Origin: Xylanibacter ruminicola 23
GTDB lineage: Bacteria; Bacteroidota; Bacteroidia; Bacteroidales; Bacteroidaceae
Reading direction: 5' to 3'
Length of the DNA: 32,000 bases
Assembly (NCBI RefSeq): GCF_000025925.1
Contig: NC_014033.1
Coordinates: 390,001 to 422,000 of the forward strand
Part shown: piece after piece, positions 13,247 to 28,937 of the stretch
Layout: each line of letters begins with the position of its first letter
Position numbering within the stretch: position 1 is the stretch's first letter
Notes under the pieces: model-generated
Databases searched by the model: none
What the model saw: the letters and a program-made list of their open reading frames with translations, nothing else
Told to the model about the DNA's origin: nothing
Made by a program: the position numbers and the translations under genes

Positions 13247-13255
13247 AAGTGTTGC

Positions 13256-13807
13256 TCAGTTGATGCTTTTTAGCTGGGAGTCGATGATGACTTCCAGCCC
13301 GTTGTATACAGCAGGTATGACGGTGCGGCCGCAATACTGGCGAGGGTTGCCGATGGTAAGTTCCTCGCAGCCTATCATTCTGGCAACGACCTTGCGTACA
13401 AATGCCACAGCCATACTCATCATGTGGTCGAAGTCCTTGGCTGTGTATGCTATCATGCGGTCAGGATTAGCCATGAATATAGCGCGATAGAGACGAGCGA
13501 GCTCAGGGAAATCCTTCTCTGGCTTGTTCAGACTGCGACGCTGATACCCCATGGGGTGGAGTAGGGTGTAGATATATATCAGTTTCGAGTAACGGTCCTC
13601 GAACTTGATGACCTCCTCCGTGTTGTCATCCTTCAGTACGATGACGTCGTAGATGTTAGTACCTGAGATGTCCTTGATGTCGCGATGGCGCACCTCAATA
13701 GCGACGGGTTGGGGTGCCCACTCCTTATCTGCTGCCATGTACTCTGCCAGACGCTGCTGCATTTCTTCTACACTCATTTGCTGGATTGCATCTTGAATTT
13801 TGCTCAT
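13256..13807 (-). CDS. Hypothetical protein (183 aa), first gene behind motif m6
   Basis: Intact ORF, with motif m6 exactly 63 nt upstream of its ATG. No family recognised. Confidence 0.6.
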   Translation of the reverse strand: MSKIQDAIQQMSVEEMQQRLAEYMAADKEWAPQPVAIEVRHRDIKDISGTNIYDVIVLKDDNTEEVIKFEDRYSKLIYIYTLLHPMGYQRRSLNKPEKDFPELARLYRAIFMANPDRMIAYTAKDFDHMMSMAVAFVRKVVARMIGCEELTIGNPRQYCGRTVIPAVYNGLEVIIDSQLKSIN

Positions 13808-13954: not shown

Positions 13955-16900
13955 TTAACCATTCTTCATCAATTCTTTCAGTGTTGCAATCTTTTCTTCT
14001 GTTTGATGAATGCTGTCATCTGATTCGTTTTGCTCATGTTTGAGTTTCAAGCACAACTCAAACTCTTCAAGAGCCTCGTCATAACGACCAAGGTCTTGAT
14101 AGACAGATGCTAAAGTGTCTATAATATAAGGCGTTTCAGGGAATGCCGCAACAGCTTTCTCTGCCCAAGGCAGGGCTTCTTCGTATCGTCCTGACAAATG
14201 GAGAGTCCATGCAATTCCATTATATGCTTTTTTATAGCCATTCTCAGCTGATTTCTTATACCATTCAATGGCCTTTTCATAATTTTGTTCTGTACCACAC
14301 CCATTCGCATACATCCAGCCGAGATTATTTTGAGCGACAGAGTAACCTCCTTCTGCGGCTTTATAAATTAAATCAAAGGCTTTCTCGCCATTTTGTTCCA
14401 CACCTTGCCCTAATCTGTATTTTACTCCTAATTGATTCTGAGCTAATACATGGCTTTGTTCAGCAGCCATACGATATAATTCAATCGCTTTATCAAGATT
14501 AGGTTCTATTCCTTTACCATATTCATAGATTAATCCCAAATTATATTGTGCTCTGGCGTCTCCTTGTTCAGCAGCTTTACTATACCATTCTGCTGCAACT
14601 ACGTAATTTTTCTCAACTCCTTTACCTATTTCATACATATGACCAATATAAAACTGTGCATTTGTATCTCCAAGAGTAGCTGCTTTCTCAAGCCATTGGC
14701 TTGCCAAATTGTTATCGCCAATATTTAGATAGAGGTGTCCTAGCTTTCTATATGTTCTAACTGTGTCTGGATGTTCTGCCCCCAGTACTTTTTCTCTTAT
14801 TTCTAATGCTATCATGTAATACTCCAGTGCATGGTCGTAATTGCCGATATCTTTGTATAAGACACCGATGTTGTAATATGAGCTTGCCGTGTCAGGATGA
14901 TCCTTGCCATGGACTTTCTTTCGGATTTCCAAGGCCTGCTTGTAATACTCCAGTGCCTTGTCGTAATTTCCGAGATTATTGTATACGTTGCCAATGTTGT
15001 TATATGCCATAGCTGTATTAGGATGTTCCTTGCCAAGGACTTTCTCGCAGATGTCTAAAGCATGCTTATGACATTCCAGCGCTTTGTCATAATTTCCGAG
15101 ATCATTATATGTGTTACCGATATTGTTATATGAACTTGCCGTGTCAGGATGTTCCTTGTCCCAGACTTTCTCTCGGATATCCAAAGCCTTCTTGTGAAAC
15201 TCCAGTGCATGGTCGTAATTGCCGATATCTTTGTATACGTTGCCGATGTTGTTATATGATCCAGCTGTATCAGAATGCTCCTTGCCCAGAATTTTCTCTC
15301 GAATATATAATGCCTTCTTATGAAACTCCAATGCCTTGTCGTAATTGCCGATCTCAGAGTATACGTTGCCGATGTTGCTATATAAGCGTGCTGTACCAAG
15401 GTGTTCTTTGCCCAGAACTTTCTCAAGAATATTCAAAGCCTGCTTTTGATACTCCAATGCCTTGTTGTAATCGCCGAGTTCTAAGTATACGAGTCCAATG
15501 TTGGTATATGCCATAGCTGTATTAGGATGCTCCTTGCCAAGGACTTTCTCGCAGATTTCTAAAGCATGCTTATGATATTCCAGAGCCTTGTCATAATTGC
15601 CTAGATGGTAGTATCCGATGCCGATGTTGTTATACGAACCGGTTGTGTCAAGGTGGTCCTTGCCCAAGACTTTCTCTCGGATATCCAAAGCCTTCTTATG
15701 AAACTCCAGTGCCTTGTCATAATTTCCGAAATCAAAGTAAACAAGACCGATGTTGTTGTATGAGTCGGCTGTGTCAAGATGTTCCTTGCCTAGAACTTTC
15801 TCTCGGATATCCAAAGCATGCTTGTGATATTCCAAAGCCTTGTCGTAATTGCCGAAATCATAATATACGATACCAATATTGCTATATGTGCGTACCGTGT
15901 CAGGATGTTCCTTACCCAGGATTTTTTCTCGGATATTCAAAGCTTGTTCGAAATACTTCAGTGCTTTGTCGTAATTACCCAAACAATCGTTTACGATACC
16001 GATGTTGTTATATGAGCGGGCTGTGTCAGGATGCACCTTGCCATGGAAATCTTCACACATCTTTATTTGTCTGTTGTGTATTTCTATTGCATTGTCGAAA
16101 ATGGCATGGTCACGAAGGAAACCTGAATATTCCCAAAAGAAATCGATATATTTATCTTGATCATAGTTTATCTCCTGTGCAATTGCATCGGCAAGTTTGT
16201 AGATTTCTTCTGCCTGTTTGATGCGTTCATCAATAAGAATACTAGCATCTGCCATAATAGAAGTTGCCTTGAGTGACAACTCTTTGATAGATATAATAAG
16301 ATTCTGTCGTTTCTGTTCTGTTATCTCCTTGCTTTGTTTATACTCGTTCAATAGGCATTTAGCATCTTCTTCTGCTTCATTGAGAATTGTGTTGGCTTCA
16401 CGTACTAGCCCTTCGTTAAGAGCATCCATTGCTCGACGTATACGATCATTAATCTCTTCTCCTTGTAATTTTGCAACACGTTTCGCTGTATTAAACAATA
16501 GTTCTTGATGTTGGGCAAAATCTTCCTTCAACTTATTGTATTTGTTAAGCTTGGGTTGGAGGTTATCAATCAGCTTTTCTACATCCTTTTTTATATAATT
16601 ATAATCCTCCTGACAGTCTTCGTCATCAGGGGTTTCTTCTAACTTTGCCTTTTTGGTATCTAGTCTTCTTTGTTTCTTTTCAAGTTCAATTTGCATCTCC
16701 TCAATTTCTTTGCGAAGTTCATGAATGTCAGTCTGCATTCTGAGAAAATCTTCGTTAGCTGCAGCAAATTTGAGATTCTCCATTTTGGCAAATGGAAGGC
16801 CATTGATGGTTACAACGCCATCTTCTACCTTCACATTATCCATCTGGCTGCTTTCAACCAACTGCAACTGCATTACAAACTGGAACTGAAGGCTTTCGCG

Positions 16901-17314
16901 ATTGTCATAGCGACACCAGTAGTGCCCCATCTCGTCAAAGAGTCTTTTTTTGAATTCCTTCAGTTCGGGTGTTTCTTCTTCTCCTGGTTTCAAATCTTTG
17001 CAATATGTATATACCTTTGGAGATGATTTTTCTTTGAATTCATCTGAAGCTATATTGAACTCCTCTACAGTAAACTCTCCTGCTTTCTTGTGGAATAAGG
17101 CTAAGAAGATATCACTCTGTCGTACATAATCGTTGTATTCGTCCTGTTTACGTTTATCATTATAGGCAGAATCATAGTCTTCCCATTCAAACAGTTTTAT
17201 TCGAATGCCACGTTTCTCATACATATTATCCAAACGACGAACCAGATTACCGAACGCCATTCGATCGTAATCCATTTCCTCTGATGATGCCAGGAATATC
17301 TTGATAGTCTTCAT
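13955..17314 (-). CDS. Large sensor-like protein: DUF4062/TIR-like N-domain + coiled coil + 10-11 TPR (42-aa, KLC-type) + ~4-5 Sel1 repeats
   Basis: 1119 aa. N-domain: MKTIKIFLASSEEMDYDRMAFGNLV...VRQSDIFLALFHKKAGEFTVEEFNIA...PKVYTY (beta-alpha Rossmannoid pattern like DUF4062). Residues about 170-400 are coiled coil. Then ten near-identical HPDTAxSYNNIGxVYxxLGNYDKALEYHKKALDIREKVLGKE units. Then Sel1 units (GDARAQYNLGLIYEYGKGIEPNLDKAIELYRMAAEQ and similar). Confidence 0.7.
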   Translation of the reverse strand: MKTIKIFLASSEEMDYDRMAFGNLVRRLDNMYEKRGIRIKLFEWEDYDSAYNDKRKQDEYNDYVRQSDIFLALFHKKAGEFTVEEFNIASDEFKEKSSPKVYTYCKDLKPGEEETPELKEFKKRLFDEMGHYWCRYDNRESLQFQFVMQLQLVESSQMDNVKVEDGVVTINGLPFAKMENLKFAAANEDFLRMQTDIHELRKEIEEMQIELEKKQRRLDTKKAKLEETPDDEDCQEDYNYIKKDVEKLIDNLQPKLNKYNKLKEDFAQHQELLFNTAKRVAKLQGEEINDRIRRAMDALNEGLVREANTILNEAEEDAKCLLNEYKQSKEITEQKRQNLIISIKELSLKATSIMADASILIDERIKQAEEIYKLADAIAQEINYDQDKYIDFFWEYSGFLRDHAIFDNAIEIHNRQIKMCEDFHGKVHPDTARSYNNIGIVNDCLGNYDKALKYFEQALNIREKILGKEHPDTVRTYSNIGIVYYDFGNYDKALEYHKHALDIREKVLGKEHLDTADSYNNIGLVYFDFGNYDKALEFHKKALDIREKVLGKDHLDTTGSYNNIGIGYYHLGNYDKALEYHKHALEICEKVLGKEHPNTAMAYTNIGLVYLELGDYNKALEYQKQALNILEKVLGKEHLGTARLYSNIGNVYSEIGNYDKALEFHKKALYIREKILGKEHSDTAGSYNNIGNVYKDIGNYDHALEFHKKALDIREKVWDKEHPDTASSYNNIGNTYNDLGNYDKALECHKHALDICEKVLGKEHPNTAMAYNNIGNVYNNLGNYDKALEYYKQALEIRKKVHGKDHPDTASSYYNIGVLYKDIGNYDHALEYYMIALEIREKVLGAEHPDTVRTYRKLGHLYLNIGDNNLASQWLEKAATLGDTNAQFYIGHMYEIGKGVEKNYVVAAEWYSKAAEQGDARAQYNLGLIYEYGKGIEPNLDKAIELYRMAAEQSHVLAQNQLGVKYRLGQGVEQNGEKAFDLIYKAAEGGYSVAQNNLGWMYANGCGTEQNYEKAIEWYKKSAENGYKKAYNGIAWTLHLSGRYEEALPWAEKAVAAFPETPYIIDTLASVYQDLGRYDEALEEFELCLKLKHEQNESDDSIHQTEEKIATLKELMKNG
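14774..16033 (-). repeat. Coding tandem array of 126-bp TPR units with a 504-bp (4-unit) higher-order repeat
   Basis: Ten consecutive 42-codon units. gccatagctgtattaggatg(t/c)tccttgccaaggactttctcgcagat(g/t)tctaaagcatgcttatga occurs at 15006 and again at 15510, exactly 504 nt apart. Spurious repeat-derived ORFs appear in other frames of the track (for example 15055-15426 and 15109-15516). Confidence 0.85.
17043..17314 (-). repeat. Near-identical 272-bp segment shared with 19547-19818 (5' ends of the two TPR genes)
   Basis: Hand comparison finds 4 mismatches in 272 nt, all synonymous. The offset is exactly 2504 nt. Identity falls sharply 3' of this block. Confidence 0.9.
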
Positions 17315-17319
17315 TTCCT

Positions 17320-19818
17320 TTAGTGCAATTTGGTTTGTATTTCTTTCAGTCTATTTTGACTATCAACTGCTTCTGGATGATCTTCTGGTAGCAAATCGAT
17401 AGCCTCTTTGAATTTATTGCGGGCCATTTCCAAATTTCCCATCAAAGCATAGACGCGTCCTAACCTATTGAGATAGCTGGCTTTTGCAGTCGTGTCTTCT
17501 ATCTTTACTGCAATTTCGTAAGCTTTACTTATATACTCAATGGCTTTCTCGTATAACGTCAAGTCCCTATATTGTGCTCCAACATTGTTATATGCAATAG
17601 CGGTTTTAATTGAATTGTTACCCGAATTGCGAAGATGATAATCTATTTCTTTTTGGCGATATATTAAGGCATTATGATAATCTTCAATTTCACGATAAAT
17701 GGTTCCTATAAGATTATAAGATTTGAGAACATCAGGATGATCCTTTCCTAAAACCTTCTCTTGTATATCCAGGGCCTTCTTATAATGCTCAAGTGCTTTA
17801 TGATAATCACCTTGACTGTCATAAATGCCACCGATACAGTAATTTGTCTTGGCAGTTTCAAGGTGTTCCTTTCCCAATGTCCTTTCTTGGATTTCAAGAG
17901 CCTTAAGGTAATAATGTAAAGCTTTCTGATGGTCACCCATTAAGTCATATGGTACCCCAATATTGTGATAGGATTGAGCTGTATGGGGATGATCTTTTCC
18001 CAATACCTTTTCCCTGATTTTTAAAGCCAAAAGATGATTGTCAAGCCCCTTTTGGTATTCACCAATATCATCATATAGGCACCCAATGTTATTATAAACT
18101 TTTGCCGTTTCTGGATGATTGATTCCTAAGGCCTCTTTATCAACGTTTATCGCTTTGTTATAGTAATCTAGTGCCTTCTGATAATCACCCATGTCATGAT
18201 ATACAATACCGATATTGTTATACAACTTTGCCGTCTCAGGATGATTAATGCCTAAGATCTTTTCATCAACAACCAATGCCTTTAGATGGTATTCCAATGC
18301 TTTTGAGTACTCACCCATATCCTCTAAAAGACACCCAATATTATTGTATGCTGTTGAAGTATAATCATTTTCGGCACCAAGTATTCTTTCATAAATATCA
18401 AGCGCTTTCCTGAAATACTCCATAGCTTTGGGGTAGTCAACCATTTGGTTGTATATTAAACCAATATTGTTGTAGGATGTTGCTGTTTGAAGATCAGCCT
18501 TCCCCAGTACTTCTTCACGTATTTCTTGAGCCCTGAAATGATATTTTAATGCATCTGTGTATTTACCCATGTCATCATAAAGACAGCCAACATTATTGTA
18601 AGCTATTGCTGTGTCGGAGTGAATCTCTCCATATATTTCTTCTGACAACACAATCAGTCGTTTATAGATATCTTCGGCTTGTGAATATCGGGCATATTTC
18701 TTTAGAAAATCTCCATAATCGAGAAGGATCTGGGCGAATTTGTTTTTGTCGTACTCAGCAACTTTTGACATTTCATCAGCTTGAGCATATAGGTTCTCTG
18801 TGCTTTCGATACGTTCCTCAATAGGTATGCTTGCATCTGCCATTATGGTGGAGGTCTTCAATAATAACTCTTCGATGGAGTTGATAACTGCTTGGCGTTT
18901 CAAATCAGTAATCTCTTTACTCTGTTTATAATCCTCTAGATTCCTGCGAGCATCTGCTTCTGCTTCATCTAAAATGATATTTGCCTCTCGAACTTTTCCA
19001 TCGTTGAAAGCATCCATAGCTCTTCGCATGCGCTCGGTTATACGTTCGCCCTGTAATTGGGCAATACGTTTGGCCGTATCGAATAGGATTTGTTGGTACT
19101 CATTAAAATCTTTTTTCAACTGGTTGTAACGGTTGAGTTTCGTTTGTAAGTCATCCTGAAGATCTTCATCATCAGGGAATTTCTCGAGACGCAGACGGGC
19201 TTTTTCTATTTTTGGGGGCAAAGATGCCAGTTCCTCATTCATCTTTATGAATTCCTCATTGCGTGATGCAAATTTTAGTTTACCCATTGATGCAATTGGA
19301 AGACCATTGATGGTTACATTCCCGTCTTCAACTTTCATATCCGTCATTTGGTTGCTTTCAACCAATTGCAGTTGCATGACGAACTGGAACTGGAGACTCT
19401 CGCGATTATCATAGCGGCACCAAAAGTGCCCCATCTCATCAAAGAGCTGTTTCTTAAAATCTTTTAGTTCTGGTGTTTCTTCTTCGCCTGTTTTCAAATC
19501 TTTGCAATAGGTATATACCTTTGGAGATGCTTTTTCTTTGAATTCTTCTGAAGCTATATTGAACTCCTCTACAGTAAACTCTCCTGCTTTCTTGTGGAAT
19601 AAGGCTAAGAAGATATCACTCTGTCGTACATAATCGTTGTATTCGTCCTGTTTACGTTTATCATTATAGGCAGAATCATAGTCTTCCCATTCAAACAGTT
19701 TTATTCGAATACCACGTTTCTCATACATATTATCCAAACGACGAACCAGATTACCAAATGCCATTCGATCGTAATCCATTTCCTCTGATGATGCCAGAAA
19801 TATCTTGATAGTCTTCAT
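17320..19818 (-). CDS. Sensor-like protein: DUF4062/TIR-like N-domain + coiled coil + ~9-10 TPR
   Basis: 832 aa. The first 90 residues are identical to ORF 13955-17314 and similarity continues to about residue 165. Then coiled coil and divergent 42-aa TPR units (...TAIAYNNVGCLYDDMGKYTDALKYHFRAQEIREEVLGK...). Confidence 0.7.
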   Translation of the reverse strand: MKTIKIFLASSEEMDYDRMAFGNLVRRLDNMYEKRGIRIKLFEWEDYDSAYNDKRKQDEYNDYVRQSDIFLALFHKKAGEFTVEEFNIASEEFKEKASPKVYTYCKDLKTGEEETPELKDFKKQLFDEMGHFWCRYDNRESLQFQFVMQLQLVESNQMTDMKVEDGNVTINGLPIASMGKLKFASRNEEFIKMNEELASLPPKIEKARLRLEKFPDDEDLQDDLQTKLNRYNQLKKDFNEYQQILFDTAKRIAQLQGERITERMRRAMDAFNDGKVREANIILDEAEADARRNLEDYKQSKEITDLKRQAVINSIEELLLKTSTIMADASIPIEERIESTENLYAQADEMSKVAEYDKNKFAQILLDYGDFLKKYARYSQAEDIYKRLIVLSEEIYGEIHSDTAIAYNNVGCLYDDMGKYTDALKYHFRAQEIREEVLGKADLQTATSYNNIGLIYNQMVDYPKAMEYFRKALDIYERILGAENDYTSTAYNNIGCLLEDMGEYSKALEYHLKALVVDEKILGINHPETAKLYNNIGIVYHDMGDYQKALDYYNKAINVDKEALGINHPETAKVYNNIGCLYDDIGEYQKGLDNHLLALKIREKVLGKDHPHTAQSYHNIGVPYDLMGDHQKALHYYLKALEIQERTLGKEHLETAKTNYCIGGIYDSQGDYHKALEHYKKALDIQEKVLGKDHPDVLKSYNLIGTIYREIEDYHNALIYRQKEIDYHLRNSGNNSIKTAIAYNNVGAQYRDLTLYEKAIEYISKAYEIAVKIEDTTAKASYLNRLGRVYALMGNLEMARNKFKEAIDLLPEDHPEAVDSQNRLKEIQTKLH
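19547..19818 (-). repeat. Near-identical 272-bp segment shared with 17043-17314
   Basis: See 17043-17314. Confidence 0.9.
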
Positions 19819-19839: not shown

Positions 19840-21165
19840 TTATATTCCGAATTTGCCGTAGCGGCCACCTACATCTTTGTGGTGGTACCAGCTTTTGCGA
19901 TTGAGCCAGGTGAATCCATTGTTCTTTGTGATTACGGCCAGGTCTATGGGGCCACCAACACTTTCTTGTGAGAAGGTCATGTGGCGCTCAAAGCTGGTCA
20001 TGGCGATAAGATTCTCTGCCAAGTTTGCCATGTCCTGAACACTATAGTTGTTGAGTGCCTTCAGCCATTGACGACGTTCTTCTACTAGAATCCGTTTTCC
20101 ATATTGCTTGAACTTGCGAGTCAGATCGTTTAATTTCACCTTGTTGAGTATAGCGTCAATCTCTTCGGATTCTTCCACCGACATACAATCAATGGATAGC
20201 TGTTTTTTTATCTCGTTAAACATATTCTCAGAAATACTACAAACATTTCTGAAGAAATGTGGTTCAACTCCTGTAAGCAGAGCATCCATAATATCTGTCT
20301 GAGCATACGGACAGATTGCAACGGGATTGGCATCGGATATGGCATGTATGTCTTCTGGATCAATATAGTAGCAGATGCGATTGTCAAATCCATGGCTGAC
20401 CATTACCCTAATCATTACTGGATATTCCTCGTCACTGCCGTATCCAGAAAATATAAGGTTGGTTTTGCCATACTCATATCCATATGTCATATATGAGAAA
20501 AAGCCTTCTATAAATAATTCTTTGATTTCAGACAATATGTCTTTTGGATATTCGTTTGAAAACGTGTCGTCTTCCTCAAACAAAGGTGAGTCTAAAACGG
20601 CAGTCTTCCTTGCAAAAAGATTATCAACCATAGAGTCGAGATACTCTTTAAATTGGTTGATGGTGTAATCTTTATACATGGGTAGTGGCGTAAACTCATG
20701 GAAGAATTTGATTCCGGATTCAATGCGCTTGTGAAACGCATCAACAATCTGTTTTTTGTTTGTAACTACTCTCTCCTCGTTTATGTTTATATCTGGTACT
20801 TGACACACTGCATCATCCCAGAATGAATGAAGCATGTTTCTTAGATAATTCCGTTGTATTTCCTCTGGAAAGAATATCTTCTCTGTTAACATATACGAGA
20901 AGAAATCATCGATACAGGCTTGGACGGTCGGGAATTGTATGTTGCCACGTTTCTGCCGATAACGGCGTATAATAACATCCCATGGAGTACAAAGAAAGGA
21001 TGCCGAGCCAACTATCATGACGCTAACGGGGCAGGCGTCAGACATTCTCAACATTTTGTTGGCTGAATTCTCAACCTTTTCGTTACCGTCTCGTGTCATC
21101 GTGACGGCACTATCTGCCGCAATTGCAATACCGCGCTTATTTAAAATGCCTACTACTGCTGTCAT
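19840..21165 (-). CDS. Proteasome beta/HslV-like Ntn (Thr1) hydrolase, predicted active subunit (pair 2)
   Basis: The start is preferred at the ATG 21163-21165, giving MTAVVGILNKRGIAIAADSAVTMTRDGNEKVENSANKMLRM (Thr1, Asp17, conserved Lys), as in ORF 8853-9815. The track start at 21195 would add a 10-aa hydrophobic leader (MFIWIIILTI) and overlap the upstream gene by 19 nt. Also contains FSGYGSDEEYP and the C-terminus ESVGGPIDLAVITKNNGFTWLNRKSWY...GKFGI. Confidence 0.6.
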   Translation of the reverse strand: MTAVVGILNKRGIAIAADSAVTMTRDGNEKVENSANKMLRMSDACPVSVMIVGSASFLCTPWDVIIRRYRQKRGNIQFPTVQACIDDFFSYMLTEKIFFPEEIQRNYLRNMLHSFWDDAVCQVPDININEERVVTNKKQIVDAFHKRIESGIKFFHEFTPLPMYKDYTINQFKEYLDSMVDNLFARKTAVLDSPLFEEDDTFSNEYPKDILSEIKELFIEGFFSYMTYGYEYGKTNLIFSGYGSDEEYPVMIRVMVSHGFDNRICYYIDPEDIHAISDANPVAICPYAQTDIMDALLTGVEPHFFRNVCSISENMFNEIKKQLSIDCMSVEESEEIDAILNKVKLNDLTRKFKQYGKRILVEERRQWLKALNNYSVQDMANLAENLIAMTSFERHMTFSQESVGGPIDLAVITKNNGFTWLNRKSWYHHKDVGGRYGKFGI

Positions 21166-21176
21166 AATTGTCAAAA

Positions 21177-22025
21177 TTATAATCCAAATAAACAATGCTT
21201 GATATAAACCACTCCCTCTGTACGGGTAATTACTGCCAGTTCTCTGGCGTGCGGAAGTTCCCCCTTGCCGCCGGCTTTTAGGTGGTCTAACTGCACTTTT
21301 GCATCAACAAAATCCTCAACAACTTTTACCAGGTCCTCAATATTAAATGAGTCTATCGCCGTGTTGATTCGGTCTAATTGTTTATATGTCTGCTTAAAAG
21401 TGTGTTTTTTAAATTCTTCTTCAGTATCGTATTCGCATAGCCTGTTCCGAACACTCTCTTCAAACTTGGTCTCTTTTACAGCTTCCAAAATTCTATTCTT
21501 AAAGACTTCGATAAGCTCAACTTGCTTATCTATTAGTTTAAGGTGTGCTGCATGAGAGATTCCGTACATGATTGGCTGAGTTTTCTCAAAATGACTTAGT
21601 GTGAAGAAATCAGTCTCATTATCATGATCTATACCTCGCTCTATGTTGAAGTCGCATACCAGTTTGTCTGTTTCCTCGTCAATGTGCACCATAATATCTA
21701 CGGCCGAAGGGAATACGTCATCAGTGCCAAAACCTAAGAATATAATATTTCTGTCATCTTCTGTCATTTTCTTCCAGGCAGGATCGACCTCTACAGAACA
21801 AAGATAATTGCAGAAATCACGGGCATAATCGCCGAATACTTCATGCTTGGCTATTTCGCCCTTTTTTAGATAGGTGTTGATGATGGCATCCCAGGGGATG
21901 GGTGAATACGAATTCACGGCAAGAGCTACTGGTTCCTGCCGTGAAAGTGTATATAAGGTCATGTCGGTGTCCGAGGCACAGGCAATTCCTTCTTTGTTTA
22001 GAAATGCTACGAATGATGTGTTCAT
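21177..22025 (-). CDS. Proteasome-like Ntn-fold paralog, probably non-catalytic partner (pair 2)
   Basis: MNTSFVAFLNKEGIACASDTD aligns with TAVVGILNKRGIAIAADSA. Thr3 and the Asp17 equivalent are kept, but the conserved Lys position appears to be lost. Also contains IIFLGFGTDDVFP and the C-terminus RELAVITRTEGVVYIKH, which matches the pair 1 partner. Confidence 0.5.
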   Translation of the reverse strand: MNTSFVAFLNKEGIACASDTDMTLYTLSRQEPVALAVNSYSPIPWDAIINTYLKKGEIAKHEVFGDYARDFCNYLCSVEVDPAWKKMTEDDRNIIFLGFGTDDVFPSAVDIMVHIDEETDKLVCDFNIERGIDHDNETDFFTLSHFEKTQPIMYGISHAAHLKLIDKQVELIEVFKNRILEAVKETKFEESVRNRLCEYDTEEEFKKHTFKQTYKQLDRINTAIDSFNIEDLVKVVEDFVDAKVQLDHLKAGGKGELPHARELAVITRTEGVVYIKHCLFGL

Positions 22026-22327
22026 GTTAACTTTGATTTCTTGATTTCAAATCCTTGGGATACAATAAACTTCAGGGTGGCGAAGGCCGTATTTCGATCG
22101 TAGGCTTTCTCCTCCTCTGATAGTTCTTCATAGGGAACCAGACATGGAGTCTGTCGTTTCTCGTCGTCACGTACGGGGCCGTATGTCCAGCCTTCGTTCA
22201 TGCGGTTCAGGGCCCATACCTCATGTACATTCTTTGAGATGGCCTCTGCAAGTACTGTTAGTTCTTCTGGCAGTTTCACGTTAGTAGTGTCAACTGGAGC
22301 AGGCTTGTAATCATAGTTTTTAGTCAT
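22022..22327 (-). CDS. Stand-alone RyR domain protein (101 aa)
   Basis: AISKNVHEVWALNRMNEGWTYGPVRDDEKRQTPCLVPYEELSEEEKAYDRNTAFATLKFIVSQGFEI matches the RyR-domain consensus and the C-terminus of ORF 11548-12564. An ATGA overlap couples it to the next gene. Confidence 0.7.
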   Translation of the reverse strand: MTKNYDYKPAPVDTTNVKLPEELTVLAEAISKNVHEVWALNRMNEGWTYGPVRDDEKRQTPCLVPYEELSEEEKAYDRNTAFATLKFIVSQGFEIKKSKLT

Positions 22328-22561: not shown

Positions 22562-22981
22562 ATGAGCTACACCTATAAATATCCACGTCCGGCAGTTACT
22601 GCCGACATGATTGTTCTGGCAGATAAGTCGGAACCTAAAATACTATTGATTCAACGTAGAGATGAACCCTTCAAAGGCTGTTGGGCATTTCCTGGCGGTT
22701 TTATGGATATGGATGAGACTACTGAACAATGCGCTATTCGCGAACTCAAGGAGGAAACAGGCCTTGAGGTAGGGGAGGTAAAACAAGTAGGCGCCTATTC
22801 ATCAGTCGACCGCGATCCACGTGGTCGCACCATCACTGTGGCTTACGTTGCTCACATACCTCAGGCACTTCCTGTTATGGGGCTCGACGATGCTGCCGAA
22901 GCCAAGTGGTGGCCTATTGATGCACTTCCACCACTGGCCTTCGATCATGCACAGATACTGCAAGATGCTTTAAAGGGATAA
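22562..22981 (+). CDS. NUDIX hydrolase (ADP-ribose pyrophosphatase-like size class)
   Basis: Perfect Nudix box GX5EX7REUXEEXGU: GFMDMDETTEQCAIRELKEETGL. 139 aa. Confidence 0.85.
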   Translation: MSYTYKYPRPAVTADMIVLADKSEPKILLIQRRDEPFKGCWAFPGGFMDMDETTEQCAIRELKEETGLEVGEVKQVGAYSSVDRDPRGRTITVAYVAHIPQALPVMGLDDAAEAKWWPIDALPPLAFDHAQILQDALKG

Positions 22982-23452
22982 TCATTTTTTTATCTTTATG
23001 TGCTCTTTGCTGATAACGCCATCGCGTACCAGTTCGATGATGTCATTTTCGGTCAGGCATCCATGGCAGAACAAGTGGAGGGCAGCTACCCCCCAGTCTA
23101 TAAATGGAGATGCATCGCTGTCATCTGTTTTTAGAGGTGCGCCGAGCGCTGCGTCATCAATGTATATGTTACCATATACTTTTGGTGATGAAGTCCAATC
23201 CTTCTGGCTGGGATTCTCATTCACACCATATAGTGGAATGTCACGTTCCTTAAACCAATCGAGTGCGGGCTGGAGTGTGTCTACGCCTTCAGAATCATGA
23301 CTTCTCATGGTGCTCAACAGTAGTTTATGCCCATTGTTTACCAATTTCCTTAATACTGGTACTGATCCTATATCTTCTCCGACGGCAGGGTAGCGATGCT
23401 TCACTACCGTACCGTCGAAGTCGAGTACTATGTAATAACTGTATTGAATCAT
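22982..23452 (-). CDS. Small HAD-superfamily phosphatase-like protein
   Basis: Motif I DxDxT (VLDFDGTV) and a distal acidic motif (IYIDDAA). 156 aa. It directly abuts the kinase gene stop codon (0-nt gap) and the convergent Nudix stop codon (0-nt gap). Confidence 0.65.
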   Translation of the reverse strand: MIQYSYYIVLDFDGTVVKHRYPAVGEDIGSVPVLRKLVNNGHKLLLSTMRSHDSEGVDTLQPALDWFKERDIPLYGVNENPSQKDWTSSPKVYGNIYIDDAALGAPLKTDDSDASPFIDWGVAALHLFCHGCLTENDIIELVRDGVISKEHIKIKK

Positions 23453-26086
23453 TTAGTCAAGTTTAATGTTCTCACATCCGGGGAAGAGGTTGAGGAAAGC
23501 CTGAGCATTAACAGGCCTTTCGTTTACGAATTGATAAAGGCCTTCAGCTATCGCCTCCTTCATTAGATCAGTACACTCAAGCATATCAAACATTATGTAT
23601 TTATCAGCATCCACGGTAATAGGTTTTGGAAGTTTTCCAGATAACATAGTGAATAATGTCGCAGCCACACTGTAGATGTCTGACTGGGGGCAGAAGTGCT
23701 TCATCGTACCTCTGGTGTTTTCTGGAGCCGAGAATCTGTCGTAGGAGTGTATATCTCCTCTTATTTCTGTGATATCCCCATTATCGTCATATTGCTGTGA
23801 TACTCCAAAGTCGATGAGCACAGCCTCGCCATTCTCGTCTATAACAATATTGTCTGGTTTGATGTCTAGATGTAGAATCCTGTGACTGTGCATAGCATGG
23901 AGAGCTTTACACAATGGGATGACGATCTTGTCTATAATCAGTTTCTCAGATGATGGAACTTGATCGTTGATTATCATGTCTTTGAGCGACTCTCCTGCAT
24001 AGAATTTCATTACGTAATATGTAGTGCCAGTAGCTTCATATTCAAATAATGACTTAACTTCTGTTACATGATTGTCAGCTATGTCGGCCATGCTAAGAAG
24101 GAATACAGGTTCACTACGGAACATTTTTCGCAGCGATTCAAACTCTGCCTCAAGTGTTTCATCGTACATTACTCTGCATGTCTTCTCGTTTTCTCGATAA
24201 CATGTGAGATCCCCAATTCCTCTTGGATAGAACTCCTTAATAGCAACGATTTCCTTCGAACCATTACTGCAATTAAGCATCTCTGCGCGATAGGTATAGC
24301 CAAATGCACCGCAAGAGATATAGTTTAAGATGGTGTATCTCTTGTTGTCATCTGTTAATTCGAATCCAGGAGGCAGGGCATCAGCTCCTTCTTCTTGTAT
24401 TTGTGCAGGTGCTTCAGCATTCTCTACGTCTGGCAGATCAAAATCTTCTACCTCTATATATAATATAAGGTTTAGGTAATCTTCTTCTGTCAATGGTTCT
24501 GGCACCATTTCATTTTGGCCATAGGGATGAAGTTGACGCCTTACATACGATTGGCTTAACTCGTCTGCAAGCCATTGTGGGTTTTCAAATCCATTAAGTG
24601 CAAATGCATAACCATCTTCAAAGAATGCTGATCCTATATCCGCATTGAAAAGTCTGGGCTCAGCAGGTCCTGAAGCATTAACTATTAAGCAGTCTTCGTC
24701 TAGGTAATAAGCCGGATTGAATAAGTTCTTGATAGGTCTTCTTTCAATATTCTCATCCCATCGATTACCATAATAGGTCTCGTTCCGGTTTATATAGGCC
24801 AGAATATGCTCATCTTCATCTATATTGTCAAGGTTATAAACCGCACGTGGTATCTTTGAGACAATATCACCTAACCTAACTTTTCCAAATCCTTTGCGAT
24901 CAGGCAGTTCTGATACGATAAGAGATTTGAGATACCCCTTTTTCTTGGCATTGCTAACCTTGATATATTCTGAGAACATATCATCCTCGATGAGTTCCTG
25001 CATAGATGTATGCTGGGCCAGTGGGTTCGTGCCATCTATAAACCGAATGAGTCCTTTAAAAACAGTGGTTTTCTGGGCATTTATCAATACGGCTACTTCT
25101 CCGAAGGGAAGCAAGGCGATGGTTTCAATCCAGTCGCGCTTCAGGGCTTCCTTAAAGTTTGCCGTCTCTTTCTCGAAGATCTCCTTCGGTAATACCATAC
25201 CTGCATAGCGACCTTTGAAGTCTGGATCATTCAAACATTTGCCTAGGCAAAAATCGAAGGCTGACTCGCCATTGATGAATCCGGTATATGTGGTGATAAC
25301 ATAGTCAATCTGCTTGCCGTTGAGCCATTGAGTAGAATCGCGCTGCAGGAAGTGCTCGTTTGATACCCCCATGCCGTAGTTCAGCAATAGTCCACCTGCA
25401 TAAATCTTGTCATTGGTATCACCATCACCAAAGTAATTGGTTTTTGATTGCAACATCGCACCTGCGATAGGACAACCGGCAAACGGGTTGTACACCAGTC
25501 CTTTGCCATCATATTGTAATAGCGCTTTCAGGGCATGGGCCACTCTCAAACGTGGACGCTTAGGTTGTATACCGGATTTATTCCAAATATGATTGAAGAT
25601 GTTCAGATACCTATCTTTTATATACGAAACTGGTGTGTTAAGCAGGGCTTCGGCTAGAACGAATGTTGCATACTGGCGCTGTGCTTTCTCGCTGGCTTCG
25701 TTGCTCGAATGATGCACCAGACGTCCTATCCTGTGATGATATTCGCGAACCACGTCTCGTTCATCGTTGTTCTTCAGAGTCGTATAAATCTGAAGCAGGC
25801 TGCGGCCAATCTCCATTTCCACTGCAATAGATGTTATTCCATCCTTAATCCATTTATTGACTCTTCGCTTCAGAGTCGCATCAAGATCCACCCACTCATA
25901 GTCGATAATTTCTTTGGGGTTGAGCACACATGCTGCAGTCTCAGGTTTGCTGTTTCCTGTAGCAATTCTTAGTTTTCCATTTGCAGCCAATGCCACCATC
26001 ATCAGCGGCATAAGCGTGTCTGGATTGTAGTGGTAGTAGTTTTCCACTGCATCAAAAAGTCTACTGGAGAATTCCTTTTTTGCCAT
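23453..26086 (-). CDS. Fusion protein: N-terminal N6-methyltransferase-like (apparently degenerate) region + C-terminal Ser/Thr protein kinase
   Basis: Kinase motifs: Gly loop CGAFGYTY, VAIKEF, catalytic loop HRILHLDIKPDNIV, LIDFGVS, FSAPE. The N-terminal ~400 aa contain LVYNPFAGCPIAGA (compare MTase motif I vyDPaCGsG) and WIETIALLPFGEVAV, but no clear NPPY/F motif. Confidence 0.7.
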   Translation of the reverse strand: MAKKEFSSRLFDAVENYYHYNPDTLMPLMMVALAANGKLRIATGNSKPETAACVLNPKEIIDYEWVDLDATLKRRVNKWIKDGITSIAVEMEIGRSLLQIYTTLKNNDERDVVREYHHRIGRLVHHSSNEASEKAQRQYATFVLAEALLNTPVSYIKDRYLNIFNHIWNKSGIQPKRPRLRVAHALKALLQYDGKGLVYNPFAGCPIAGAMLQSKTNYFGDGDTNDKIYAGGLLLNYGMGVSNEHFLQRDSTQWLNGKQIDYVITTYTGFINGESAFDFCLGKCLNDPDFKGRYAGMVLPKEIFEKETANFKEALKRDWIETIALLPFGEVAVLINAQKTTVFKGLIRFIDGTNPLAQHTSMQELIEDDMFSEYIKVSNAKKKGYLKSLIVSELPDRKGFGKVRLGDIVSKIPRAVYNLDNIDEDEHILAYINRNETYYGNRWDENIERRPIKNLFNPAYYLDEDCLIVNASGPAEPRLFNADIGSAFFEDGYAFALNGFENPQWLADELSQSYVRRQLHPYGQNEMVPEPLTEEDYLNLILYIEVEDFDLPDVENAEAPAQIQEEGADALPPGFELTDDNKRYTILNYISCGAFGYTYRAEMLNCSNGSKEIVAIKEFYPRGIGDLTCYRENEKTCRVMYDETLEAEFESLRKMFRSEPVFLLSMADIADNHVTEVKSLFEYEATGTTYYVMKFYAGESLKDMIINDQVPSSEKLIIDKIVIPLCKALHAMHSHRILHLDIKPDNIVIDENGEAVLIDFGVSQQYDDNGDITEIRGDIHSYDRFSAPENTRGTMKHFCPQSDIYSVAATLFTMLSGKLPKPITVDADKYIMFDMLECTDLMKEAIAEGLYQFVNERPVNAQAFLNLFPGCENIKLD

Positions 26087-26253: not shown

Positions 26254-26802
26254 ATGGCAAATCTATTAGCAATCAGCATTCCTGTTAAGCGCGATCCTTC
26301 CTGGTCCGACTGGGCCAAGCGCACTCGTGCTAGTATCAAGGCTGCAGGTGTTCCTGTCAGCAGGTGGCAATTGTTGTTTTACCACATGACTATCCTATTC
26401 ATCGACGAAGACGCCTGTGTCGCCGACCTCACACCCGGCTTCGCTCAGGTCTTGAAATCATGTCCTGCCATACCGTTTATTGTCAATAAACTCGATGCCT
26501 TCACCACCACTAATGGTGCCGAACACATCATCTGTCTGTTGTCTACTCAGGTGCCACAGCAGATCCACAACCTTGCCAGCGACTCAAGGACGATGGCCGA
26601 CGGCCTCAATGCCAAATACGATCATCGTCCATTCATCCCCCATATCACCTTTGGACATGTGCCAGCCGACAAAATCTCGCTCCAGGAGTTGCGCACCATT
26701 CTTGAGGCTCTGCCACAGCCCTCATTCCATTGCCTTCTCAACGAGGCCGAACATCGCTATCGCCGCGGCAACGGCACCATCAAGAAATGGCGCCTCCGCT
26801 GA
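26254..26802 (+). CDS. 2H phosphoesterase superfamily protein (LigT/cyclic phosphodiesterase-like)
   Basis: Two HxT motifs at the expected spacing (YHMTILF and PHITFGH). 182 aa, the typical size for LigT-like proteins. Confidence 0.65.
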   Translation: MANLLAISIPVKRDPSWSDWAKRTRASIKAAGVPVSRWQLLFYHMTILFIDEDACVADLTPGFAQVLKSCPAIPFIVNKLDAFTTTNGAEHIICLLSTQVPQQIHNLASDSRTMADGLNAKYDHRPFIPHITFGHVPADKISLQELRTILEALPQPSFHCLLNEAEHRYRRGNGTIKKWRLR

Positions 26803-26816
26803 TAGTGCACTTTTTC

Positions 26817-26842
26817 CTCTCAAATACTTGCAAGTTTGAGAG
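26817..26842 (+). terminator. Terminator-like hairpin after the 2H phosphoesterase gene
   Basis: ctctcaaa-tacttgcaag-tttgagag, an 8-bp perfect stem 15 nt after the stop codon. No strong T-tract follows. Confidence 0.45.
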
Positions 26843-26850
26843 AAAATGTT

Positions 26851-26858
26851 TATCTTTG
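26851..26858 (+). promoter_or_regulatory. Canonical -7 box (TATCTTTG) for the PARG-NADAR-sigma-409aa operon
   Basis: Matches TAnnTTTG, 34 nt upstream of the ATG at 26892. Confidence 0.5.
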
Positions 26859-26891
26859 CAATATCAATAATAACTAAAAACAATTGTAATT

Positions 26892-27698
26892 ATGAATAAG
26901 TCGGATTATAGAAAGATTAACCGTGAAGTGATGACCGACACTAAACTCCAGTATGAAACAATACCAGAGTTGAAGGAGGCCGTGGAGAACTCGATTGAGC
27001 GACAGTATATGGTATCCCAAGAGGATAACATTGACCAACCAGTAGTCGACAGCAGCCATACCAAGTATCTCTGCTCTGGCAAGAGAAGCTTTGAGGCAGC
27101 TAAGGATTACAAGGGCAAGAAGGTTGCTGTGCTGAATTTCGCTAACAACCACACGATTGGAGGTGCACCATTCTCTGCAGGTGCCCAAGAGGAGTCGCTC
27201 TGCAGATGCTCTACATTGCTACCTTGCCTTGAAGCCATGAGCGAACCCTTCTACCAGAAGCATATTCGCCAATTCGAGTCAGGAGAGATTAACTATATGG
27301 GTAATGATGACTTGATCTACACCCCTGATGTGGTGGTCTTTAAAACAGATGAGCGCACTGACCCTATCTATCCTAAGATGATGGATCGAAGCGAATGGTA
27401 TAAGGTGGATGTAATTACAAGTGCAGCTCCGCAGTTGAGGAGAGTTCGCACACTCCCCGTCAACTACAATGACGTAATCTTTGGCCGCATTAAGAAGATA
27501 TTGGATGTGGCTGCCAAAGAGCATGTCGAAGTGCTGATTCTGGGAGCATGGGGCTGTGGAGCCTTCAAGAATGATGCAAAAGTAGTATCGGATACATTCT
27601 ATACATTACTGAAGAATTACAACTTCGAGGTAGTAGAATTTGCACTGTCTGACCCTGCCTACGTCACCAATTCCCCATTTAATAAGTGTAATAGTTAA
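26892..27698 (+). CDS. Bacterial-type poly(ADP-ribose) glycohydrolase-like macrodomain protein (TIGR02452/DUF2263 family)
   Basis: Family signature VAVLNFANNHTIGGAPFSAGAQEESLCRCSTL (GG-X-QEE PARG loop). C-terminal ...VLILGAWGCGAFKND. Confidence 0.8.
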   Translation: MNKSDYRKINREVMTDTKLQYETIPELKEAVENSIERQYMVSQEDNIDQPVVDSSHTKYLCSGKRSFEAAKDYKGKKVAVLNFANNHTIGGAPFSAGAQEESLCRCSTLLPCLEAMSEPFYQKHIRQFESGEINYMGNDDLIYTPDVVVFKTDERTDPIYPKMMDRSEWYKVDVITSAAPQLRRVRTLPVNYNDVIFGRIKKILDVAAKEHVEVLILGAWGCGAFKNDAKVVSDTFYTLLKNYNFEVVEFALSDPAYVTNSPFNKCNS

Positions 27699-27712
27699 TC
27701 CAAATTTCTAGT

Positions 27713-28213
27713 ATGAGAGTTACAGATAAACATATTTGTTTCTGGAATGAATGGCCCAGCAATTGGCATCCAGCCGAGTTTGATGTTGAAGTTAATGGTG
27801 TGAAATGTCATTTCTACAACACCGAACAGTACTTTATGTATATGAAGGCCATCGTGTTTGGCGATGAAGAAATTGCCAAACAGATATTGGAGGTAAGCGA
27901 CCCCAAGAAGGTAAAAGCACTTGGACGTAAGGTACAGAATTATGATGAGGCTGTATGGAACGAAAAGCGCTACCAGGTCATGCTTAAAGCCAACGTAGCA
28001 AAGTTCAGCCAGAACGAAGATCTAAAGCAATTGCTTCTCTCTCCAGAGTACGAAGGACATGGATTCGTAGAGGCCTCGCCTTATGATAAAGTCTGGGGTG
28101 TGCGAATGTTTGAGAGTAATCCCGACATTGATGACGAAACCAAATGGAAGGGACTCAACCTCCTGGGTAAAGTCCTCGACGAAACCCGCCGAATTGTAAG
28201 CCTATTAAAATAG
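27713..28213 (+). CDS. NADAR (DUF1768/YbiA-like) family protein
   Basis: FWNEWPSNWHPAEF...YNTEQYFMYMKA...ALGRKVQNYDEAVWNEKRYQVMLKANVAKFSQNEDLKQLLL...FVEASPYDKVWGV matches the NADAR family pattern. Confidence 0.85.
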   Translation: MRVTDKHICFWNEWPSNWHPAEFDVEVNGVKCHFYNTEQYFMYMKAIVFGDEEIAKQILEVSDPKKVKALGRKVQNYDEAVWNEKRYQVMLKANVAKFSQNEDLKQLLLSPEYEGHGFVEASPYDKVWGVRMFESNPDIDDETKWKGLNLLGKVLDETRRIVSLLK

Positions 28214-28220
28214 TATTAAG

Positions 28221-28937
28221 ATGTTTAAATCTGTTTCAAAGAATTATACCCCTGATTTCCTAGAGAGTTTCATGGCTAGGATTAGGGGAGTTAAAGCCCT
28301 TGACGAAGAACAAGAGGTTTATTTGGCTCAAAGGATCAAAGCTGGCGATACTAAGGCCGAAGAGCAAATGATTAAATCAAATCTGAAATTGGTTGTTTCA
28401 ATTGCCAACTCCTACCGCCCGATGATGTCTATGGAAGACTTGATTCAGAACGGCAATATCGGATTAATCAAGGCTGTTCGCGAATTTAATCCGGAACTCG
28501 GCTATCGTTTTGTCTTCTATGCCTCCATGATGATACGCAAATATATCATCATGGGCATTAGAAATGACTCCGGAATTGTCCATAGCTCTGATTATGAACA
28601 GGCTTTTATTTCGTCGGAATCTTTGGACGTGCCGGGTTCTGGCGGCTATAAAGATACATCCAAGGCCGATATGTTAGTAGGAGATATGGATGTGGAGTCT
28701 GATCTCGATAGTCTGTCCGCCGATTTGAAAAGAGCAATGTGCTCAGTTTTATCCCCCTGTGCGGTTGATATCGTGTGTAAGGTGATGGGCCTAGGTTGTA
28801 CTCCGATGTATACAGAAAGTATTGGAAAGGAACTGAACATGCCAAAGTCGCGTGTTCGTAAGATTTATCAAGAATCAATTGGAATTCTTCAGAACAATGA
28901 AAGAGTGAAAAAATTGCTTTCCTGCTATCAGCGTTAA
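28221..28937 (+). CDS. Sigma-70 family RNA polymerase sigma factor-like protein (238 aa)
   Basis: LDEEQEVYLAQRIKAGDTKAEEQMIKSNLKLVVSIANSYR...LIQNGNIGLIKAVREFNPELGYRFVFYASMMIRKYIIMGI (regions 1.2-2). C-terminal HTH-like IGKELNMPKSRVRKIYQESI. Same architecture as ORF 10710-11441, but the sequence is divergent. Confidence 0.7.
   Translation: MFKSVSKNYTPDFLESFMARIRGVKALDEEQEVYLAQRIKAGDTKAEEQMIKSNLKLVVSIANSYRPMMSMEDLIQNGNIGLIKAVREFNPELGYRFVFYASMMIRKYIIMGIRNDSGIVHSSDYEQAFISSESLDVPGSGGYKDTSKADMLVGDMDVESDLDSLSADLKRAMCSVLSPCAVDIVCKVMGLGCTPMYTESIGKELNMPKSRVRKIYQESIGILQNNERVKKLLSCYQR

Follow-up and report, generated by a model that had tools for sequence, protein, structure and literature searches.

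A stretch of 32,000 nucleotides of Xylanibacter ruminicola 23 (NC_014033.1, positions 390,001 to 422,000 of the forward strand), which we call the window and whose own coordinates are used throughout, carries two pairs of adjacent genes related to proteasome subunits. In each pair the downstream gene is predicted to encode a threonine peptidase with a complete catalytic set, and the upstream gene a catalytically disabled paralog of it; at the level of sequence, this active/dead two-subunit module is established. The best explanation of the observations as a whole, to which we give a probability of roughly 0.7, is a two-gene module in which a competent threonine peptidase and its dead paralog likely form an obligate hetero-oligomer with a role in phage-host conflict. 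The four genes, each labelled "hypothetical protein" by NCBI, are as follows.

21177..22025, minus strand: up2, the non-catalytic paralog of pair 2, 282 amino acids, PRU_0338, assigned by profile and model.
19840..21165, minus strand: down2, the catalytic subunit of pair 2, 441 amino acids, WP_013064646.1, with an ATG start at 21165.
9831..10616, minus strand: up1, the non-catalytic paralog of pair 1, 261 amino acids, PRU_0330, with Ala2 and Ser18.
8853..9815, minus strand: down1, the catalytic subunit of pair 1, 320 amino acids, WP_013065351.1, with T2, D18 and K52.

The two downstream proteins start with MTAIVGILNKRGIAIAAD (down1) and MTAVVGILNKRGIAIAAD (down2); their common start is MTA(I/V)VGILNKRGIAIAAD, and both have a Lys within NSxxKMLR. 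An initial annotation of this DNA had taken these residues for the Thr1, Asp17 and Lys33 of the proteasome family, and inspection of the codons bore this out for both genes: T2 lies at 9810-9812, D18 at 9762-9764 and K52 (NSGDKMLRL) at 9660-9662 in down1, and T2 at 21160-21162, D18 at 21112-21114 and K37 (NSANKMLRM) at 21055-21057 in down2. The latter protein also carries E401-x-VGG and D408, and residues 281-293 of down1 read ESVGGLVDLAVIT. Of 208 full-length homologs of the catalytic type, 204 keep the Thr, 206 the Asp and 205 the Lys, a degree of conservation that would not be due to chance, and the motif E-x-VGG-xx-D, located C-terminal to the triad, is invariant among these homologs.

The register of these residues was checked against known family members. 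A HMMER profile built from 15 diverse members of the family (A3) aligned with the mature β subunit of Thermoplasma acidophilum (E 4e-4) and placed T2 on Thr1, D18 on Glu17, K37 on Lys33 and VGG on S169-G170-G171, which makes the three catalytic residues homologous to those of the archaeal subunit, as had been proposed from a hand alignment. Using hhalign, M1T2/D18 fell on M1T2/D18 of E. coli HslV, in a short local match with an approximate HslV sequence. Less sensitive comparisons gave little: a narrow alignment (A1) produced only a weak hit in the PDB profile search (E 0.1, to the C-terminal motif alone), which improved with the diverse A3, and only short local matches by hhalign to single sequences of T. 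acidophilum β or HslV. Pfam and NCBIfam scans of the pair proteins returned sub-threshold hits only (PF00227, E 0.008; TIGR03634, E 0.02); for up1 and up2 there was no hit. As judged from these alignments, the downstream genes carry the complete Thr1/Asp17/Lys33 set, and Thr1 of their products is predicted to be exposed after removal of Met, without a propeptide. One paired catalytic-type gene, on a cut contig (L017:928-1884), has Arg in place of Lys33 (NNTRILWLSD) and keeps Thr1 and Asp17.

The initial annotation had considered that a TTG codon upstream of the ATG of down2 might add a hydrophobic leader to the protein, either as a propeptide or as a false start.

21166..21195, minus strand: MFIWIIILTI, a false N-terminal extension of 10 residues from a TTG start, overlapping the end of up2.

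The second of these readings stands and the first was rejected, because the homologs keep the MT start and the TTG falls inside the end of up2. Specifically, the TTG at 21195 overlaps the final 19 nucleotides of up2 in another frame, the MT start is conserved in 14/14 downstream-type homologs examined (the mechanically called open reading frames of L010 and L004 extend further upstream, as in the window), and NCBI annotates down2 with 441 amino acids from MTAVV.

The upstream genes present the opposite picture at the active site, and here too the residues initially read from the sequence proved correct. In up1, Ala2 and Ser18 take the places of Thr1 and Asp17, and Lys33 is missing, whereas up2 retains a Thr after Met-Asn (Thr3) and the Asp (Asp19) and lacks the Lys, since hhalign with the up2 family alignment (98 homologs) deletes the Lys33 segment; the SGG loop is absent as well. 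Among 158 upstream-type proteins, the column equivalent to Thr1 holds T (102), A, P or N, usually after Met-Lys, Met-Asn or Met-Ser, and that equivalent to Asp17 holds D (132), S or N; the segment with the Lys is missing. Methionine aminopeptidase leaves Met in place when Asn or Lys follows it, and because Lys33 is missing, the upstream proteins would be without the machinery for autoprocessing.

Comparison of the upstream and downstream families by hhalign gave a probability of 99.9% (E 3e-33) over 262 columns, that is, over the full length and including an insertion between helices H3 and H4. By this measure, the upstream genes are full-length, diverged and, as predicted from their residues, catalytically disabled paralogs of the downstream genes. 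They also have a motif of their own, C-A-S-D-x-D-x-T, and a set of invariant residues (G13, C16, P32, W45, E262, T267, K276 and H277) that is not common to the catalytic type; Cys16 is kept in 136 of the 158 proteins and is absent from divergent upstream lineages. Since residues specific to the type are retained, the sequences identify the upstream proteins as putative pseudo-enzymes under purifying selection and not as decaying genes.

Structural models place both genes of a pair in the same fold. AlphaFold models of down1 (predicted local distance difference test score, pLDDT, 80) and up2 (pLDDT 90) were searched with Foldseek. The down1 model had 136 PDB matches at E<=1e-3, of which the 50 listed are proteasome subunits and one Anbu chain; each has probability 1.0, and T. 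acidophilum β is second in rank. Against a viral structure library it matched a viral proteasome β and a viral HslV. For the up2 model, the 50 PDB matches listed are likewise proteasome subunits and one Anbu entry, at probabilities of 0.97-1.0. Both genes of each pair are thus predicted to have the proteasome (N-terminal nucleophile, Ntn) fold, in keeping with what the initial annotation had expected.

Several elements are added to this fold. In the down1 model, helices spanning residues 193-251 are inserted between H3 (181-189) and H4 (256-276), and this helical H3/H4 insertion is present in both catalytic and upstream proteins. Down2 has a further insertion of ~110 amino acids after H2 (alignment A1), and down1 a long β-hairpin insertion between strands S3 and S4, which is short in pair 2. 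The up2 model begins with a strand at residues 5-10, with no N-terminal extension and no α-type H0 helix. The paired catalytic subunits end in a conserved tail, WLNRKSWY..GGxYGKFGI (window codons 8853..8910 and 19840..19900; also in L001, L005, L008, L012-L015 and L018), which is of low confidence or disordered in the down1 model; single-gene forms of phages and prophages have tails unrelated to GGxYGKFGI.

The upstream type is consistently found with a catalytic partner. An upstream-type gene was followed by a catalytic-type partner in 15/15 loci, namely the window (twice) and 13 others, which come from genomes of Prevotellaceae, Bacteroidales, Alistipes and Rikenellaceae and from metagenomes, with gaps between the two genes of -4 (an overlap) to 18 nucleotides. 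These loci include three deeply divergent upstream lineages, so pairing is obligatory for the upstream type across the 15 loci examined; the taxonomic breadth of the pairs is under-sampled, as a scan of genome contigs with very strict peptide patterns yielded 6 loci. By BLAST, up1 resembles up2 (E 2e-21) and down1 resembles down2 (E 1e-35) more closely than upstream resembles downstream (E 1e-5 to 1e-12). In a neighbour-joining tree, the upstream clade was recovered in 100/100 bootstraps and the paired catalytic clade, nested among single-gene forms, in 82/100; the two subtrees are congruent, grouping the loci alike, and the upstream clade has the longer branches, which indicates that it evolves faster than its catalytic partner. 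Adjacency, BLAST grouping and congruent trees together indicate that the pair originated once and that its two genes then diverged in concert; later, both genes were probably duplicated as a unit in this island. On this sequence evidence, the dead subunit arose by duplication inside the family and not from a 20S α subunit.

The pairs form a small part of a much larger family. When the upstream alignment was used as a profile in an exhaustive search, 2,919 clusters (50% identity) passed E<=1e-3 and 1,657 passed E<=1e-10; ~55-60 of the clusters, with proteins of 260-300 amino acids, are of the upstream type, and the rest are of the catalytic type, with 400-450 amino acids. Down2 matches the phage protein family phrog_5990 over its full length (E 1e-71), and down1 matches it at E 3e-52. 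A single catalytic gene occurs in 13 GenBank phages or satellites, comprising Porphyromonas, Stenotrophomonas, Providencia and Streptococcus phages and Streptococcus satellite phages such as Javan160, and relatives were found on 229 IMG/VR contigs; each of the 80 of these that were examined has one catalytic gene and no upstream-type gene, and 79/80 keep the MT..D..K motif. In the Porphyromonas phage phage022a_WW2931 (L002, BK068103.1:25469-26713), the catalytic gene lies inside the morphogenesis block, with portal/adaptor on one side and neck/tape measure on the other. The Stenotrophomonas phage and the Streptococcus satellites have it at accessory positions instead.

In the window, both pairs are parts of one long minus-strand gene array, whose order of transcription runs from a kinase protein to an S-adenosylmethionine-lyase-like gene. 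The other genes of the array, and those that lie near it, are listed here.

23453..26086, minus strand: kinase protein of 877 amino acids with a C-terminal Ser/Thr kinase domain, PD-T4-6-like.
22982..23452, minus strand: open reading frame of 156 amino acids.
22022..22327, minus strand: small RyR-domain protein, whose stop overlaps the start of up2 by 4 nucleotides.
17320..19818, minus strand: coiled-coil TPR protein with DUF4062 (TIR-like), the next gene downstream of pair 2.
13955..17314, minus strand: second DUF4062 (TIR-like)-TPR-Sel1 paralog.
12557..13807, minus strand: two proteins of no assigned family, including an open reading frame of 229 amino acids at 12557..13246.
11548..12651, minus strand: C39-like peptidase carrying a RyR domain at its C terminus; it precedes the sigma gene and pair 1.
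10710..11441, minus strand: small sigma-70-like protein, directly upstream of pair 1.
8271..8840, minus strand: S-adenosylmethionine-lyase-like protein (PF23780, T3 SAMase family), directly downstream of pair 1.
22562..22981 and 26254..28213, plus strand: cluster of NUDIX, LigT-like 2H phosphoesterase, microbial PARG and NADAR genes, near the TIR-like genes.
28221..28937, plus strand: second small sigma-70-like protein, preceding an open reading frame of 409 amino acids.
28976..30205: the 409-residue open reading frame, of no assigned family, following the second sigma gene.

Genes for RmuC and an AAA_14 protein also lie near the array. Much of this arrangement recurs elsewhere. The segment from pair 2 to the S-adenosylmethionine-lyase-like gene is found again in L001, where the order of the C39-like/RyR peptidase, the sigma gene and pair 1 is the same and the sigma-70-like gene upstream of pair 1 is kept; both sigma-70-like proteins of the window consist of regions 1.2 and 2 only. 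The lyase-like gene is kept directly downstream of pair 1-type genes in L001 (8971-9534) and L009 (4747-5430), at 54% identity. DUF4062/TIR-TPR-Sel1 orthologs are found near pairs in L001, L005, L008, L011, L012 and L018, and orthologs of the 17320..19818 protein adjoin the pairs in L001, L008, L011 and L012; in L008 the pair also stands next to a Macro-TIR gene. RyR proteins (PF02026, E about 1e-35) lie immediately upstream of the pairs in L010 (182-541) and L011 (4754-5128).

The kinase protein matches the PADLOC models PD-T4-6 and mad6, and its N-terminal 430 amino acids, which have no Pfam match, are 45-49% identical to the gene directly after the pair in L013 (4353-5348) and L014 (3539-4849). 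A protein of ~650-690 amino acids without a confident Pfam domain was found beside the pairs in L005 (10170-12128), L008 (12072-14153) and L018 (2236-4209), at 25-33% identity, although these loci differ in their other genes. No HslU gene was found in the window or in the related loci examined, and an AAA gene that could serve as a partner was absent from the window and from most loci; a classical AAA protein of 587 amino acids (PF00004, E 6e-25) is encoded directly upstream of the RyR, upstream and downstream genes in a single locus, in the Prevotellaceae metagenome-assembled genome RUG14585 (L011:2991-4754). We know of no AAA+ partner reported for the newer proteasome homologs. The gene make-up around the pairs is that of a phage-host conflict island and not of a housekeeping proteolysis locus.

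All of these observations can be brought together in one scheme. The downstream gene would encode a competent N-terminal-threonine peptidase without a propeptide, with Asp17, Lys33 and the Gly-Gly loop in place and with Thr1 exposed by methionine aminopeptidase. The upstream gene would have arisen once, by duplication within the family, and both the strand segment bearing Lys33 and the SGG loop would then have been lost, leaving a protein without a conserved free N-terminal Thr. The two genes have co-diverged and are presumably co-transcribed and translationally coupled, and a two-subunit enzyme with one catalytic and one non-catalytic member fits because of the invariable pairing, the short gaps and the congruent trees. 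A heteromeric assembly is thus well motivated by the sequences, and an obligate hetero-oligomer of dead and active subunits is the most likely form for it to take. In such an assembly, the dead subunit could supply an interface, recognition of a substrate or ligand, or control of the active subunit, and the GGxYGKFGI tail of the paired catalytic subunits may serve to dock the dead subunit or another partner. Because the pairs lie in islands with TIR-like/TPR/Sel1, RyR, kinase and NAD/ADP-ribose genes, and because single-gene relatives are carried by prophages, phages and satellites, we infer a role in phage-host conflict, in which the module may act as a proteolytic effector or as a processing step.

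A number of points weigh against this explanation. The residues that support the triad, Ser129/Asp166/Ser169, are matched only in part: Val replaces Ser169, and an invariant Glu stands one position off Asp166. The equivalent of the oxyanion-hole Gly47 in the catalytic type is G, N, Q or S. The PDB profile search found no member of the family with a solved structure. The majority of members are encoded as single genes, and therefore the catalytic subunit appears to have no intrinsic need for a partner. Neighbouring genes differ between loci, and no model in PADLOC-DB v2 fits the pair, the four pair proteins giving only insignificant partial matches; a defence role therefore rests on guilt by association. 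Finally, the proteasome fold can act as a ligase, as in connectase, and the peptidase activity of the downstream proteins is a prediction.

Other explanations have to be weighed against an obligate hetero-oligomer of active and dead subunits. The dead paralog could be a safety catch, that is, an antitoxin-like stoichiometric inhibitor bound to the oligomerisation or active-site face of the protease, whose release or destruction upon infection would set free a putatively toxic enzyme and cause abortive infection. Such an arrangement would suit the upstream gene, which comes first and is closely coupled to its partner, a layout known from many toxin-antitoxin and effector-immunity pairs, and which evolves faster than its partner; the defence-island setting agrees with it, and the phage single-gene forms show that the protease can act without the upstream protein. 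However, the upstream protein retains the full fold, the insertion and conserved motifs of its own, which is more like a co-assembling subunit than a plug. We consider a safety catch unlikely, though worth keeping in mind, and since it too requires heteromeric contact, it would be a variant of the explanation given above rather than an alternative to it. A more distant proposal is that the catalytic subunit, like connectase, is a sequence-specific processing enzyme or ligase for one partner protein of the island and not a degradative enzyme. Thr1 without a propeptide, the ring-incompatible insertions, the conserved large neighbours as possible substrates and the S3/S4 insertion of pair 1 by the active site, which is the site of the connectase specificity element (PMC8665760), would all be consistent with this. 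Nevertheless, neither sequence nor fold comparison brought out a specific likeness to connectase, 20S β subunits being the best matches, and the S3/S4 insertion is a β-hairpin, short in pair 2, and not the helix pair of connectase, which leaves this proposal rather improbable.

It is also conceivable that the two proteins do not assemble at all, and that the upstream protein has an independent, non-proteolytic role in the same pathway, such as ligand or peptide binding, with adjacency reflecting shared regulation. The C-A-S-D-x-D-x-T motif and the invariant residues not found in the catalytic type could be read in this way, but adjacency in all 15 loci across deep divergence, together with the gaps of -4 to 18 nucleotides and the congruent phylogenies, exceeds the norm for mere co-regulation, and proteins of the proteasome fold are typically oligomeric; we regard separate roles as improbable. 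At the other extreme stands a true 20S-like particle, perhaps served by an AAA+ protein, with outer α-like gating rings made of the upstream protein and inner β-like rings made of the downstream protein (α7-β7-β7-α7 or six-fold). An inactive and an active paralog are indeed combined as in the 20S particle, and L011 has its classical AAA gene directly upstream of the RyR gene and the pair. Against this, AAA genes are not found in the window or in most loci, there is no α-type H0 helix and no β propeptide, the dead subunit derives from within this family and not from α, and the H3/H4 insertions of both subunits and the H2 insertion of pair 2 occupy ring-ring or pore positions, where they would be incompatible with stacking (PMC8665760). 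For these reasons a literal 20S-like ring architecture is not supported by the models, and such a particle seems very doubtful. Of the division of labour between α-like and β-like subunits that the initial annotation proposed, then, the co-encoding of active and disabled paralogs is borne out by hhalign and by the residues, the scaffold or gating role that it gave to the disabled subunit is conjectural, and a literal reading of the analogy is not supported. Hardly credible, in our view, is a still-active upstream enzyme, whose nucleophile would be Thr3, once Met-Asn is removed, or another residue such as the conserved Cys16 or Ser18. Thr, Asp and Cys16 are retained in 102, 132 and 136 of the 158 proteins, respectively; yet entire sub-lineages, pair 1 among them, have A, P or N in place of the Thr, the loss of Lys33 and the SGG loop leaves no machinery for autoprocessing, Met-Asn and Met-Lys starts are not substrates of methionine aminopeptidase, and Cys16 is absent from divergent upstream lineages.

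The obligate hetero-oligomer can be carried further, to a scenario in which the division of labour of the proteasome was re-invented independently in Bacteroidales: a phage-borne, single-gene Thr1 protease would have been duplicated into a non-20S obligate hetero-oligomer, held together in part by the tail and forming the proteolytic core of a new anti-phage system with TIR-like/TPR sensors and RyR proteins. We offer this extended version tentatively, as a possibility that we would not yet favour.

Experimentally characterised prokaryotic homologs outside the 20S particle are described as homo-oligomers (HslV, Anbu and BPH) or, for connectase, a monomer. Heteromeric α/β 20S particles exist in Actinobacteria, and 22 further, uncharacterised families were catalogued in 2021, so the initial annotation was incomplete in setting the pairs against HslV, Anbu and BPH as the known bacterial forms. 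With the 20S α/β subunits of archaea, Actinobacteria (PrcA/PrcB) and eukaryotes, the pairs share the fold and, in prokaryotes, the presence of an active Thr1 subunit beside an inactive paralog, and the N-terminal strand and SGG-loop motifs of the family are recognisably similar to those of T. acidophilum β. They differ in that the inactive subunit appears to be of independent origin, in the lack of an α H0 helix and a β propeptide, in large insertions at ring contacts, and in being set in a defence island and not a housekeeping context, without a Pup/ubiquitin system or a regular AAA+ partner. HslV (ClpQ) is bacterial and shows the same Met-Thr start, Thr1 exposed by Met removal and Asp17 in register; it is, however, a compact homo-dodecamer of ~175-residue subunits working with the AAA+ protein HslU, with neither insertions nor an inactive paralog, whereas the paired catalytic subunits have 320-441 amino acids with insertions and no adjacent HslU. 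Anbu and BPH are also bacterial and without a dedicated unfoldase, and Anbu is among the fold matches, but they are homo-oligomeric (PMC5666114, PMC5777263), lack a dead partner and occur in other operon contexts. Connectase, an archaeal protein ligase (PMC7980362), resembles the pairs in its proteasome fold, its ring-incompatible additions and an S3/S4 element near the active site, and is a precedent for non-degradative chemistry in this fold; it is monomeric, confined to methanogens and without H1/H2, and no specific similarity to the pair was detected. The members of phrog_5990 (PHROGs v4, with no assigned function) are single-gene phage or satellite forms of the catalytic type, and its phage members differ in having neither the upstream paralog nor the C-terminal GGxYGKFGI tail.

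The closest published counterparts come from a survey that described 22 new prokaryotic families of proteasome homologs, including PMI-1 to PMI-6 (Fuchs, Alva & Lupas, 2021, Bioinformatics 37:4694; PMC8665760). These "Proteasome homologs with Multiple Insertions" (PMI) are uncharacterised, possess the Thr1/Asp17/Lys33 triad and lack a propeptide; their insertions lie at H3/H4 (PMI-2 to PMI-6), after H1/H2 (PMI-3 and PMI-4) and at S3/S4 (PMI-5 and PMI-6), and the authors argued that insertions at these sites would prevent rings from stacking (PMC8665760). The most abundant type, PMI-4, occurs in Bacteroidetes and phages (PMC8665760). The downstream genes and phrog_5990 share the triad, the lack of a propeptide and the sites of the H3/H4, post-H2 and S3/S4 insertions with these homologs, especially with PMI-4 and PMI-2, and the catalytic family likewise spans Bacteroidetes and phages. 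We therefore consider that the catalytic family probably corresponds to the PMI homologs, a likeness drawn from the published description. Because conserved active-site residues were the survey's criterion for choosing hits, it did not look for dead paralogs, and it reports no genomic context, co-occurring partner, inactive subunit, gene pairs or conflict islands (PMC8665760). A search of the literature, within the library covered, on PMI follow-up, on proteasome-like proteins in phage defence, on conflict systems combining RyR and proteasome proteins and on the PRU locus tags found no later description of the pair; the dead partner, the obligate pairs and the context of TIR/TPR/RyR conflict islands appear to be undescribed.

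If the proposed module is real, a second, independent pair of active and dead subunits would be a natural experiment on the evolution of the α/β split and would reveal what a pseudo-subunit contributes, be it assembly, gating, specificity or control. The pairs also give a first genomic context, and with it a testable function, to a large orphan family (about 1,600-2,900 clusters at 50% identity), which probably belongs among the new families that the 2021 catalogue left with no hint of function. With the pairs, a predicted threonine protease would join the enzymes of phage-host conflict islands. As the genes sit in a cultured and sequenced strain, X. ruminicola 23, direct experiments should be straightforward.

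Some minor observations concern the neighbouring genes. The 409-residue open reading frame at 28976..30205 was considered as a third member of the family and rejected, as it matched neither family profile. One of the two RyR domains in the window is fused to the C39-like peptidase, and the two domains are 46% identical to each other. The TTG start listed for the C39-RyR gene at 11548..12651 makes it overlap the 229-residue open reading frame at 12557..13246 by 95 nucleotides; the true start is probably a downstream ATG. Lastly, the tandem DUF4062 paralogs (13955..17314 and 17320..19818) are 94% identical over their first 160 amino acids (92% at the nucleotide level) and 54.5% identical overall, which suggests that the head domain may have undergone recent gene conversion or an exchange of N-terminal domains.

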